Source of the DNA: a virus
Length of the DNA: 15,390 nucleotides
UHGV virus genome: UHGV-1727288
Reading direction: 5' to 3' (one strand)
Shown: one piece after another, positions 9,175 to 15,390 of the stretch
Numbering within the stretch: the first letter of the stretch is position 1
Layout: each line of letters starts with the position of its first letter
Notes under the pieces: generated by a model
The model's database searches: none
What the model was told of the DNA's origin: nothing
What the model saw: the letters and a program-made list of their open reading frames with translations, nothing else
Position numbers and translations under genes: made by a program

Positions 9175-9918
9175 TTAACTGGCTTTCTTTTTCGGGCGTC
9201 CACGTTTTGCCGGTGCCACGCTCCGGGTCTTACGCGGGGCGCGGGTGGCCGCTTTTGGCTGCGGCTCCGGCTTCGGTTTCAGTTCCCGCTCCAGTCGTTC
9301 AATCTCTTTTTTGACGCCTGCCTGACAGTCGAGCTGTGTCGCACGTTGCAGGTGCGCCAGCGCACCGGCGGCATCACCACCGTCACGCAGAAACAGACCG
9401 GTAATTTTGTGCAGCTTTGCGCGCACTTCATCAGGCATGTCAGCCGTGGCGGTCAGTTCAAGGGTCTCCGTCAGCAGGCGGGTATCCACAGACTCACCGG
9501 CAGCGTGAGCGCGCATGGCCGCAAGCGCTACCTCCTCGGTGAACATGTACGGCGGGGTACGGCGGTGTTTACCCGGCATGGTCAGACCGTACTTCAGGGC
9601 ATAACGGGCAATCTCCAGCGCACCGGCAATATCGCCGGTATCCAGACGCCACAGCATGACCGTCATCAGAATGTCATCCTGTGCACCTTTGCCCTGCTCC
9701 AGCACGCCGTTCACCCACGGCAACCAGAACGGCAGCAGTTCGCGTTTTTTCGCGGCCTTCAGCTCTTTTGAATAAATCGCTTTCAGTATGCGCTGGTCTG
9801 CGGCGAGCTTAACCAGCATCTGCTCATAGACAGTTGCATGTCGCAGCGGGGCGGCTTCCCGCTGCGCGGTCATCGCTGCCGAGACCCGCATCATGTGGCG
9901 CTGTGCGGGACTCGTCAT
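9175..9918 (-). CDS. M: Terminase small (endonuclease) subunit M
   Basis: 247-aa ORF matching P2 gpM in length and position, with a basic Lys/Arg/Pro-rich C-terminus. Confidence 0.9.
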   Translation of the reverse strand: MTSPAQRHMMRVSAAMTAQREAAPLRHATVYEQMLVKLAADQRILKAIYSKELKAAKKRELLPFWLPWVNGVLEQGKGAQDDILMTVMLWRLDTGDIAGALEIARYALKYGLTMPGKHRRTPPYMFTEEVALAAMRAHAAGESVDTRLLTETLELTATADMPDEVRAKLHKITGLFLRDGGDAAGALAHLQRATQLDCQAGVKKEIERLERELKPKPEPQPKAATRAPRKTRSVAPAKRGRPKKKAS

Positions 9919-12081: not shown

Positions 12082-13854
12082 ATGACCATCACCACAGACA
12101 CCACTCTTTTACACGACCCGCGTCGTCAGGCGGCGCTGCTGTACTGGCAGGGGTTTTCCGTGCCGCAGATTGCCGCCATGTTGCAGATGAAACGCCCGAC
12201 GGTGCAGAGCTGGAAACAGCGCGACGGCTGGGACAGTGTTGCCCCCATCAGCCGTGTCGAAATGAGTCTGGAAGCGCGGCTGACCCAGCTCATCATCAAA
12301 CCGCAGAAAACCGGCGGTGACTTCAAGGAAATTGACCTGCTGGGACGCCAGATTGAACGACTGGCACGGGTCAACCGCTACAGCCAGACCGGCAACGAAG
12401 CAGACCTTAATCCGAACGTCGCTAACCGCAACAAAGGCGGGCGTCGCAAACCGAAAAAGAATTTTTTCAGTGACGAGGCCATCGAAAAGCTGGAGCAGAT
12501 TTTCTTTGAGCAGTCTTTCGACTATCAGTTGCACTGGTATCGCGCCGGGCTTGAGCACCGCATCCGCGATATCCTGAAATCCCGCCAGATTGGCGCGACG
12601 TTTTATTTTTCCCGCGAGGCGCTGCTGCGCGCCCTGAAAACCGGTCATAACCAGATTTTTCTGTCGGCCAGTAAAACGCAGGCGTATGTGTTCCGCGAAT
12701 ACATCATCGCCTTTGCCCGGCTGGTTGACGTTGACCTGACCGGTGACCCGATTGTCCTGGGCAATAACGGCGCAAAACTGATTTTTCTCGGCACCAACTC
12801 CAACACCGCGCAGAGCCATAACGGCGACCTGTACGTCGACGAGATTTTCTGGATCCCGAATTTTCAGGTACTGCGTAAGGTGGCATCAGGTATGGCCTCA
12901 CAGAGTCACCTGCGTTCGACCTATTTCTCCACCCCGTCCACGCTGGCGCACGACGCCTACCCGTTCTGGTCGGGTGAACTGTTTAACCGGGGACGCGCCA
13001 GCGCCGCTGAACGCGTGGAAATCGACGTCAGTCATAACGCCCTTGCCGGTGGGCTTCTCTGTGCGGACGGCCAGTGGCGGCAGATTGTCACCATTGAGGA
13101 CGCCCTGAAAGGTGGCTGCACGCTGTTCGACATTGAGCAGCTTAAACGCGAAAACAGCGCCGACGATTTTAAAAACCTGTTCATGTGTGAATTTGTTGAC
13201 GACAAGGCGTCGGTGTTCCCGTTCGAGGAGCTGCAACGCTGCATGGTCGACACGCTGGAAGAATGGGAAGACTATGCGCCGTTTGCCACCAATCCGTTCG
13301 GCTCACGTCCGGTATGGATTGGTTACGACCCGTCACACCGTGGCGACAGCGCCGGATGCGTGGTGCTGGCACCGCCGGTGGTGGCCGGTGGCAAATTCAG
13401 AATACTTGAGCGTCACCAGTGGAAAGGCATGGACTTTGCCACCCAGGCTGAATCCATCCGCAAACTCACCGAAAAATACAACGTCGAATACATCGGAATT
13501 GATGCCACCGGCCTCGGTGTCGGCGTGTTCCAGCTCGTGCGCTCGTTCTATCCCGCCGCGCGCGATATCCGCTACACGCCGGAAATGAAAACCGCAATGG
13601 TGCTCAAGGCAAAAGACGTTATCCGCCGTGGCTGTCTGGAATATGACGTCAGCGCCACCGACATCACCAGCTCGTTTATGGCTATCCGCAAGACCATGAC
13701 CAGCAGTGGACGCAGCGCCACCTATGAGGCCAGCCGCAGCGAGGAAGCCAGCCACGCCGACCTCGCCTGGGCGACCATGCACGCCCTGTTAAATGAGCCA
13801 CTCACCGCCGGTATCAGCACCCCGCTGACATCCACCATTCTGGAGTTTTACTGA
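12082..13854 (+). CDS. P: Terminase large (ATPase) subunit P
   Basis: From the ATG at 12082 (MTITTDTTLLHDPRRQAALLYWQGFSVPQIAAMLQ...) the product is 590 aa, matching recalled P2 gpP. GAGGT Shine-Dalgarno 8 nt upstream. The track ORF starts 10 codons earlier. Confidence 0.93.
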   Translation: MTITTDTTLLHDPRRQAALLYWQGFSVPQIAAMLQMKRPTVQSWKQRDGWDSVAPISRVEMSLEARLTQLIIKPQKTGGDFKEIDLLGRQIERLARVNRYSQTGNEADLNPNVANRNKGGRRKPKKNFFSDEAIEKLEQIFFEQSFDYQLHWYRAGLEHRIRDILKSRQIGATFYFSREALLRALKTGHNQIFLSASKTQAYVFREYIIAFARLVDVDLTGDPIVLGNNGAKLIFLGTNSNTAQSHNGDLYVDEIFWIPNFQVLRKVASGMASQSHLRSTYFSTPSTLAHDAYPFWSGELFNRGRASAAERVEIDVSHNALAGGLLCADGQWRQIVTIEDALKGGCTLFDIEQLKRENSADDFKNLFMCEFVDDKASVFPFEELQRCMVDTLEEWEDYAPFATNPFGSRPVWIGYDPSHRGDSAGCVVLAPPVVAGGKFRILERHQWKGMDFATQAESIRKLTEKYNVEYIGIDATGLGVGVFQLVRSFYPAARDIRYTPEMKTAMVLKAKDVIRRGCLEYDVSATDITSSFMAIRKTMTSSGRSATYEASRSEEASHADLAWATMHALLNEPLTAGISTPLTSTILEFY

Positions 13855-14888
13855 TGAGCAAGAAAAAAGGGAAAACACCGCAACCTGCGGCAAAAAAAAT
13901 GACCGCCAGCGCCCCGAAAATGGAAGCATTCACCTTTGGCGAGCCAGTGCCGGTACTCGACCGCCGTGACATTCTGGATTATGTCGAGTGCATCAGTAAC
14001 GGCAGATGGTATGAGCCACCGGTCAGCTTTACCGGTCTGGCAAAAAGCCTGCGTGCTGCCGTGCATCACAGCTCACCGATTTACGTCAAACGCAATATTC
14101 TGGCCTCGACATTTATCCCGCACCCGTGGCTTTCCCAGCAGGATTTCAGCCGCTTTGTGCTGGATTTTCTGGTGTTCGGTAATGCGTTTCTGGAAAAGCG
14201 TTACAGCACCACCGGTAAGGTCATCAGACTGGAAACCTCACCGGCAAAATATACCCGCCGTGGCGTGGAGGAGGATGTTTACTGGTGGGTGCCGTCCTTC
14301 AACGAGCCGACACCTTTCGCGCCCGGCTCCGTGTTTCACCTGCTGGAGCCGGATATTAATCAGGAGCTGTACGGCCTGCCGGAATATCTCAGCGCCCTTA
14401 ACTCTGCCTGGCTGAATGAGTCGGCCACGCTGTTCCGCCGCAAGTATTACGAAAACGGCGCACATGCCGGATACATCATGTACGTCACTGATGCCGTGCA
14501 GGATCGCAACGATATCGAAATGCTTCGCGAAAACATGGTGAAGTCGAAAGGCCGCAACAACTTTAAAAATCTGTTTCTCTACGCCCCGCAGGGAAAAGCC
14601 GACGGCATTAAAATTATCCCGCTCAGTGAAGTGGCGACGAAAGACGATTTTTTTAATATCAAAAAAGCCAGCGCCGCTGACCTGCTGGACGCGCACCGCA
14701 TCCCCTTTCAGTTGATGGGCGGCAAGCCGGAGAATGTCGGGTCGCTGGGGGATATTGAGAAAGTGGCAAAGGTCTTTGTCCGCAATGAGCTTATCCCGTT
14801 ACAGGACAGGATCCGCGAGATAAACGGCTGGCTCGGTCAGGAGGTCATCCGCTTTAAAAACTACTCACTGGACACTGACAACGGCTGA
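13854..14888 (+). CDS. Q: Portal (capsid portal vertex) protein Q
   Basis: 344-aa ORF matching P2 gpQ in length and position. Its start overlaps the P stop (TGATG). Confidence 0.92.
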   Translation: MSKKKGKTPQPAAKKMTASAPKMEAFTFGEPVPVLDRRDILDYVECISNGRWYEPPVSFTGLAKSLRAAVHHSSPIYVKRNILASTFIPHPWLSQQDFSRFVLDFLVFGNAFLEKRYSTTGKVIRLETSPAKYTRRGVEEDVYWWVPSFNEPTPFAPGSVFHLLEPDINQELYGLPEYLSALNSAWLNESATLFRRKYYENGAHAGYIMYVTDAVQDRNDIEMLRENMVKSKGRNNFKNLFLYAPQGKADGIKIIPLSEVATKDDFFNIKKASAADLLDAHRIPFQLMGGKPENVGSLGDIEKVAKVFVRNELIPLQDRIREINGWLGQEVIRFKNYSLDTDNG

Positions 14889-14893
14889 ACATC

Positions 14894-14915
14894 GCCGCCT
14901 GCGGGCGGCTTTTTT
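14894..14915 (+). terminator. Rho-independent terminator after Q
   Basis: GCCGCC-tgcg-GGCGGC stem-loop followed immediately by TTTTTT, 6 nt after the Q stop codon. Confidence 0.75.
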
Positions 14916-15057
14916 ACATCCCGTAATCACGCCCTCACACGCTCACCACCGCACAAAACATCCCGCAGACACACCAACGCCCCGGCTAACAATCTAAACG
15001 CCATCACGACGCGCTCAGACGCTGAAAAAATAAAATCAGCACCACCGCCAGCGCGCA

Positions 15058-15076
15058 GTGCTTTCCCCGCCTCGCC
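15058..15076. other. cos site: P2-type 19-nt cohesive-end sequence
   Basis: GTGCTTTCCCCGCCTCGCC is the exact reverse complement of the recalled P2 cohesive end 5'-GGCGAGGCGGGGAAAGCAC-3'. It lies ~170 bp past Q, as in P2. Confidence 0.7.
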
Positions 15077-15314
15077 CGCCCGCTTCATGGGGCGGTTTTA
15101 ATGCAGTTGCATGATTTAGCCGAATCCGCGCCATTGTTGACATTGATGTTTTGATATGGATATGGCGTAAGCATGCGAATTCATTCAAGATGATGCAAGA
15201 ATGATGAAATTATGGTACAGATCGATTAGCCATAATATGCCCCACGTTGTTACATGTGGTTCATAAGAGTTATGGCTCATAGGGATTTATACAAAATATA
15301 TATAGGTAATTATC

Positions 15315-15390
15315 ATGTCAGGTGAAACTCAAAATATTTCAGCAATGGCAGAAAAAATATCTTCAGACCTATTCAAATGGTTTAAGTGGG
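15315..15390 (+). CDS. Start of an unidentified AT-rich ORF (runs off window edge); possible cargo gene at the cos-proximal locus
   Basis: ATG at 15315 preceded by AGGT 7 nt upstream. Open frame to the window end (MSGETQNISAMAEKISSDLFKWFKW...). AT-rich like the toxSAS gene. Only 25 codons are visible. Confidence 0.3.
   Translation, partial: MSGETQNISAMAEKISSDLFKWFKW

Follow-up and report, generated by a model that had tools for sequence, protein, structure and literature searches.

We identify positions 15051–15112 of a 15,390-nucleotide stretch of viral DNA (UHGV-1727288, hereafter "the window") as the canonical cos site of an integrated P2-like Escherichia coli prophage, in which the GC-rich hairpin beside the cohesive end is not a separate element; we put the probability of this reading at about 0.85. 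The P2-family cos site is an already known element, and the interpretation as cos given in the initial annotation is correct. The finding leaves knowledge of P2-family packaging unchanged; it anchors the map of the prophage by fixing the ends of the virion genome, and it implies that the GC hairpin should neither be annotated as a terminator nor counted as a separate regulatory element.

A P2-type cohesive end

The plus strand reads GTGCTTTCCCCGCCTCGCC at 15058–15076, and the reverse complement of this 19-mer, GGCGAGGCGGGGAAAGCAC, is identical to bases 1–19 of the P2 genome (NC_001895), which are labelled 'cosL; left cohesive end' in that record, and also to the 19 bases with which the sequence of satellite P4 begins. 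The same sequence has been given for the P2 cohesive end in the literature (PMC3931495). The window contains a single match to it, even when up to three mismatches are allowed, against 0.01 expected from dinucleotide shuffles. The 19-mer that had been taken for the reverse complement of the P2 cos end is thus an exact and unique match to P2 cosL, and it begins 170 bp after the stop codon of Q (14888), in agreement with the distance of ~170 bp beyond Q proposed for the packaging site.

A BLAST search against isolated phages returned 89 records, and in the linear phage records S164, P24A7b and fiAA91-ss ('cosL' annotated) the terminus corresponds exactly to window position 15076. The cohesive ends in the P2 and 186 records are annotated with 'top strand cut at 5' end and bottom strand cut at 3' end'. 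Transferred to the window prophage, this annotation would place the cuts at 15057/15058 on the plus strand and at 15076/15077 on the minus strand (Table 1), and the predicted minus-strand nick would split the first from the second base pair of the hairpin stem. The stem opens with base 15076, at which the 19-mer ends, and hairpin and cohesive end therefore have this one base in common; the inverted repeat and the TTTT that had been described directly after the cohesive end are present, but the former starts within it.

Table 1. Coordinates of the cos site and of neighbouring features in the window.
Feature	Position	Strand	Basis
Terminase small subunit gene (P2 M homologue), presumed cos-recognition protein	9175..9918	-	RefSeq annotation only
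Terminase large (ATPase) subunit gene (P2 P homologue)	12082..13854	+	ORF; RefSeq annotation of identical prophage
Portal protein gene (P2 Q homologue)	13854..14888	+	ORF; RefSeq annotation of identical genome
tQ, intrinsic terminator of the P-Q operon, GCCGCC-TGCG-GGCGGC + T6	14894..14915	+	Identical to the P2 tQ feature
62-bp conserved block, -36..+26	15051..15112		Column information profile of 106 distinct IMG/VR cos regions
55-bp cos core common to P2 and satellite P4, -29..+26 from nick	15051..15105		P2/P4 alignment
Second nick-flanking heptamer GCGCGCA, same orientation relative to its own nick	15051..15057	+	Conservation of +20..+26; symmetry read off the sequence
Predicted plus-strand nick, between 15057 and 15058	15057..15058	+	P2 and 186 cohesive-end annotation
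19-nt cohesive-end sequence GGCGAGGCGGGGAAAGCAC, predicted 5' overhang after terminase cutting	15058..15076	-	Exact match to P2 cosL and P4 end
Predicted minus-strand nick, between 15077 and 15076	15076..15077	-	P2/186 annotation; deposited linear genomes begin/end at 15076
Hairpin: CCGCCC (15076-81), loop GCTTCATG, GGGCGG (15090-95), then TTTT (15096-99)	15076..15099	+	Sequence; fold prediction
Nick-flanking heptamer GCGGGCG, the hairpin arm beside the cut; nearly invariant as AAGCGGGCR	15077..15083	-	Conservation profile
Palindrome ATGCA-GT-TGCAT, family consensus ATGCAnCTGCAT, adjoining the A/T run	15101..15112		TGCA peaks in cos regions
Distal cluster of degenerate TGCAT-like motifs (CGCAT, TGAAT, TGCAT), ~97-121 bp from nick	15173..15197		Family-wide TGCA peaks
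5' portion of the first variable-cargo gene, which continues past the window end	15315..15390	+	Locus L004 CDS 9276-10340; PADLOC Hp1

Conserved sequence of the cos site

When the circularised junctions of P2 and P4 are compared, a single block of similarity is found at −29 to +26 from the top-strand nick (52/55 identical), outside which the two sequences are near random (8/31 and 14/34). The coordinates of the 55-bp core used here are a reconstruction from this alignment, and its length agrees with that of the core of Ziermann & Calendar (1990), which, in the accounts of that work given in PMC3931495, PMC5694545 and PMC9594776, is conserved in P2-related phages and needed for packaging. Over this core, alignment of the window to the cos regions of P2, P4 and 186 gave identities of 54/55, 51/55 and 49/55, respectively, and both the hairpin and its T-run lie wholly inside it. 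Homology of the window to other phages and prophages stops at ~15111–15133, or at ~15181 in some E. coli prophages.

A scan of IMG/VR anchored on the cohesive end (GGCGNGGCGGGGAAAGCA) yielded 106 distinct sequences. In these cos regions, the boxes AAGCGGGC (−9 to −2), TGCATnAAAA (−29 to −20) and TGCGCGC (+20 to +26) are 94–100% conserved, with 96–100% for each of the first and the last; the exception is the variable "n" at −24 (87%). Position −1 is G or A about equally often, and position −16, in the outer hairpin arm, is C in only 61% of the regions. The flanks of the two nicks, GCGCGCA^G on the plus strand and GCGGGCG^G on the minus strand (consensus GCGSGCR^, with the caret at the cut), show two-fold symmetry and are nearly invariant across the same set. 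GCGGGCG^G mirrors GCGCGCA^G, so that the two constitute two-fold-symmetric half-sites around the 19-bp stagger, a pattern that would be expected for a symmetric nuclease assembly.

We propose that, after replication, the phage terminase (small subunit gpM and large subunit gpP, both encoded in the window) would recognise 15051–15112 and nick the two strands at the positions given above, leaving 19-nt 5′ cohesive ends with the sequence GGCGAGGCGGGGAAAGCAC; in the prophage, the two virion ends would be joined at cos, 170 bp downstream of the portal gene. The conserved boxes, which we infer to be terminase contacts, would be read by the enzyme as double-stranded sequence. One hairpin arm, GCGGGCG, is the nearly invariant heptamer flanking the predicted minus-strand nick, mirroring GCGCGCA at the plus-strand nick; the other arm is the less conserved C-rich box of the core, and the TTTT is the invariant A4 tract that adjoins the conserved TGCAT palindrome. 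Accounted for in this way, the hairpin probably arises as a side effect of recognition boxes that are conserved as duplex sequence, and the complementarity of its arms is most likely incidental or dispensable.

Comparison with known cos systems

P2 (cosL 1–19, cosR 33575–33593) has not only the same 19-nt cohesive end as the window but also identical hairpin arms, A/T run and tQ sequence, and the same layout, with cos ~170 bp from the end of Q and a variable defence locus on the opposite side. At the P2 right end, the same hairpin, AAAACCGCCCCGTGAAGCGGGCG, stands immediately before the cohesive end. One hairpin-loop base differs between P2 and the window (A for G); furthermore, the window carries the full ATGCAnCTGCAT palindrome, whereas the old side of P2 has only TGCAT, and the cargo of the window is Hp1/Hp2/Hp3 (see below) instead of old/tin. 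In P2, old and tin lie beyond cos and are transcribed away from it, with a promoter ~150 bp from the end.

P4 (NC_001609) shares with the window the identical 19-mer, an intact hairpin, the A run and the TGCAT motifs, including the distal cluster. However, its similarity to the window stops 7 bp past the cohesive end, on the Q side of the helpers; the side on which helpers carry Q is where P4 has its variable hotspot. The architecture of 186 (NC_001317) is the same as that of the window, as are the length of the cohesive end and the ATGCAACTGCATTAAAA box, but the 186 cohesive end differs at two positions (GGCGTGG...CAT), and its hairpin arms, CCGACC and GGGCAG, interrupt the 6-bp stem.

The cos of phage lambda (cosN, cosB, cosQ) combines a staggered nick site and partly two-fold-symmetric flanks with repeated binding motifs for the small terminase on one side. 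The likeness of the window to lambda cos is one of analogy only, the lambda ends being 12 nt long as opposed to 19 nt, with no sequence similarity.

Base pairing in the hairpin

The hairpin, with a stem of six G–C pairs and an 8-nt loop, is predicted to fold with −13.6 kcal/mol; only four consecutive U follow the stem, and then AAUG. The 57-nt stretch 15056–15112 folds no better than its dinucleotide shuffles (z = −0.15), and a search of 14800–15390 against Rfam in E-value mode gave no family match.

A second scan of IMG/VR was anchored on TGCAT together with a relaxed, divergent cohesive end. Pairs were counted in 112 distinct cores, each read as the RNA that corresponds to the window plus strand, the 186-type G-to-A change being scored as a G–U wobble. 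Paired cells amounted to 72.9%, compared with 72.7 ± 0.4% in column-preserving shuffles, 194 of 500 of which were at least as high; the covariation score was 0.130, compared with 0.125 in shuffles (86/500 as high), and the three inner pairs were unpaired in 38–49% of the sequences. Cells in which both sides had changed and the pair was kept numbered four, a value reached by just 30 of the 500 shuffles, although the cores are phylogenetically related and the pair and change counts are therefore non-independent events. A C–G to T–A change in the stem occurs in the divergent locus L216.

Within the close P2/186/P4 family, all six pairs are kept (G–U allowed) in 31 of 75 distinct cores, with a mean of about −10 kcal/mol, and 63 of the 75 fold at or below −8 kcal/mol. 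By contrast, in clades with divergent cohesive ends, six pairs are present in only 2 of 46 cores (mean about −5 kcal/mol), and the largest of these clades keeps 2–4 of the six in a DNA-orientation count; the hairpin is largely lost there, yet TGCATnAAAA and AAGCGNGCR persist. Across these alignments, the conserved feature of the cos core is its sequence, and the base pairing is not conserved. Many close-family cores nevertheless fold, and a few both-side changes are found; dyad symmetry may therefore be weakly selected, as it could be if, for instance, a dimeric protein used it.

An alternative register was also considered, with a 4-bp stem CCCR/YGGG and a 5-nt loop, for which CCCA...TGGG in 186 looked compensatory. 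It was rejected: the closing pair is A·C in 80 of the 106 cores and A–T in only 3, A is the majority state, and the signal is not significant.

The hairpin as a terminator or a structural signal

The hairpin and T-run could be a working rho-independent terminator on the plus strand, one that stops late transcripts running past tQ and through cos, and so shields the defence genes and their own promoter against the P-Q operon; we consider this unlikely. A consensus scan does classify the element as terminator-like (six G–C pairs, then five T in the next eight bases), its predicted energy is near that of tQ (−14.4 kcal/mol), and of the 48 helper-type cores in the close family, 42 form a hairpin at or below −8 kcal/mol. 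The orientation also fits, given that Q, cos and the cargo are all on the plus strand, an arrangement shared by P2, whose old gene is read away from cos. However, the U-run is just four long and is followed by AAUG, the loop has 8 nt, and the fold z-score of 15056–15112 is −0.15. No terminator is annotated at the cos hairpin in the P2 and 186 records, in which tQ/tW and others are.

The P-Q operon already has a terminator of its own, labelled 'tQ; putative rho-independent terminator for P operon' in the P2 record, which ends the operon 150 bp before cos. Used as a positive control, tQ was found in every helper-type locus with −12 to −16 kcal/mol and five or six U, and its two structurally different versions are always fully paired. 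Pairing maintained among homologues, as expected of a rho-independent terminator, is thus seen everywhere for tQ but not for the cos hairpin, with pairing at the shuffled expectation and no covariation among the 112 cores.

In the related divergent clades, the hairpin is lost while the A/T run remains invariant, and in P4-type satellites both are at least as well kept as in helpers. In P4 itself, the annotated genes nearest to cos, gop and beta, are oriented away from it; hence the T-run strand receives no annotated transcription, and on the psu strand there is no U-run after the stem. Packaging therefore explains the invariance of the A/T run better than termination does. On these comparisons, a terminator or insulator role of the cos hairpin is unsupported, and the earlier suggestion that it insulates the cargo gains no comparative support, given the missing covariation, the clades that keep the T/A run after largely losing the hairpin, and the presence of tQ upstream; some termination may nevertheless occur in this particular prophage.

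A second terminator-like element, GCGCTGGCGGTGGTGC followed by TGATTTTATTTTTT, lies on the minus strand at 15025–15054, on the other side of the cohesive end, with an inverted repeat at 15039–15054, so that the cohesive end is bracketed by outward-facing hairpin/T-run motifs. At this place, 186 has a better inverted repeat, CGCGCCA-GAGG-TGGCGCG, with no T-run, and P4 has no second repeat.

The inverted repeat could alternatively act on terminase through its structure, either as a hairpin or cruciform extruded at the nick in a supercoiled packaging substrate or as a two-fold site bound by a dimeric protein, which appears very unlikely. The predicted minus-strand nick does fall within the stem, dyad symmetry is frequent in the close P2/186/P4 family, the few both-side changes preserve the pair, and the second inverted repeat beyond the cohesive end, weaker in the window than in 186, could be read in the same way. 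Against this, inverted repeats with 6-bp arms and an 8-nt spacer extrude poorly, and the pairing is at the shuffled expectation. Furthermore, the 186 stem carries two changes that leave at most five pairs, one of them a G–T wobble, and 186, whose cos is of the same type, can also act as helper to P4; in the largest divergent clade, only about half of the six pairs remain; and the second repeat is absent from P4, which has nothing but the cos core in common with P2 and is nevertheless packaged by the P2 terminase. The initial suggestion that the hairpin may belong to the terminase recognition region holds at the level of sequence, inside the P2/P4 core, and not at the level of base pairing.

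Prophage context

Positions 15040–15390 match E. coli 401651 at 100% identity, within a P2-like prophage of its chromosome. The gene order is terminase P, portal Q, terminator tQ, cos, variable cargo and replication gene A. In the RefSeq annotation of the 401651 prophage, small terminase, capsid, scaffold, large terminase and portal are followed by an unannotated 426-bp gap that contains cos, and then by three hypothetical genes, an IS3 element, replication endonuclease A and the cox/C region. By this annotation, the cognate terminase genes M and P reside in the same element as cos, and the prophage has a full set of head, terminase, lysis, tail, replication and cox/C-region genes, that is, it is a complete P2-type prophage; the window therefore crosses the joined virion ends within an integrated prophage, which bears out the original reading of this junction.

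That the match is instead the cos of a P4-type satellite, or a remnant in a defective prophage, and not a working helper packaging site, is hardly credible: helpers and satellites alike do carry the cos core (matched in 2163 of 5426 complete E. coli genomes), and an IS3 element lies in the cargo region of the source genome, but the Q-side flank (TGCGCGCTGGCGGTGGTGC..., tQ, Q, P) is of the helper type and 93–98% identical to isolated P2-like phages, and the gene set is full, with a replication gene A of full length (2304 bp; intactness judged by length alone).

Two short minus-strand ORFs, 14927–15088 (53 aa) and 15036–15188 (50 aa), both overlap the cos core, and a 'hypothetical protein' is annotated in the Q–cos interval in several deposited phage records. 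If these annotations correspond to the two ORFs, the gene calls are probably spurious, because conservation here tracks the cos boxes.

A candidate terminase-binding array

TGCA is found at −29 in 96% and at −35 in 81–83% of cos regions. Beyond the core, family-wide TGCA peaks occur at −101, −111, −120 and −124 in helpers, satellites and divergent-end clades alike (cos regions L009–L248). Per 40 nt, the distal stretch holds 2.75 copies for the first set and 1.54 for the divergent one, compared with 0.05–0.16 in control windows. We tentatively suggest, with the odds somewhat against it, that the YGCAT(N)A repeats at −29, −35, −101, −111 and ~−120/−124 form a gpM-binding array, of which the T-run with AATGCA would be the nick-proximal copy.

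By analogy, such an array could be the P2-family counterpart of lambda cosB, which to our knowledge has not been mapped to date. In the literature on the small terminase, packaging reviews and work on P4 cosmids, we found neither binding sites mapped for P2 nor coordinates of a minimal cos. Cosmid transduction is reported to increase more than 1000-fold when the cos flanks are lengthened (PMC9594776), and this effect, together with TGCAT motifs at fixed distances and homology that in some other E. coli prophages reaches ~15181, suggests a cosB-like array. If real, the gpM array would explain both the gain from longer flanks and the presence, ~100 bp away, of a TGCAT cluster that helpers and satellites share beyond the 55-bp core. 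The array is a testable terminase-binding candidate and may help in the design of efficient P2/P4 cosmids.

The leftmost TGCA copy of P2 overlaps the putative −35 region of the old promoter, and a promoter role is an alternative reading for the TGCA copies. Agreement of the sixth base of TGCATN between proximal and distal copies was 0.43, compared with 0.27 in permutations, in a set of related sequences in which the proximal-T class mostly has distal G; this is a hint of concerted change between the copies.

Cargo beyond cos

The base composition breaks at 15113, from a GC content of 0.585 (14889–15112) to 0.356 (15113–15390), which marks the start of horizontally exchanged cargo DNA. The first cargo gene begins at 15315 and is transcribed away from cos, as are old/tin in P2. 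The cargo is a three-gene operon encoding proteins of 354, 370 and 223 aa (locus L004, 9276–12132) that match PADLOC Hp1, Hp2 and Hp3 (PDLC03004-06; E = 2e-63, 2e-37 and 6e-8, respectively), and a Pfam search of the three proteins found no family. We take this Hp1/Hp2/Hp3 cargo to be '3HP', one of the systems known from the P2 hotspot (Rousset et al. 2022). In P2-like phages, anti-phage systems cluster at the locus beside cos (Rousset et al. 2022, PMC9122126), and 15112/15113 is the boundary between conserved packaging DNA and this cargo hotspot.

In some RefSeq records, the first cargo protein is labelled a PD-(D/E)XK nuclease. The IS3-family transposase of E. coli 401651 lies outside the window, between the cargo operon and replication gene A (L004, 12406–13634), and, as annotated, shares ~30 bp with the 3′ end of A.

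The E. coli genomes that match 15040–15390, a query that includes the cos core, carry up to five copies each, and seven of the places are on plasmids. Nearly all of the matches cover the cos-proximal part only, with at least 80% of the query matched in just nine genomes; the abundance of the cos core in E. coli is a consequence of the wide occurrence of P2-like helpers and P4-like satellites.
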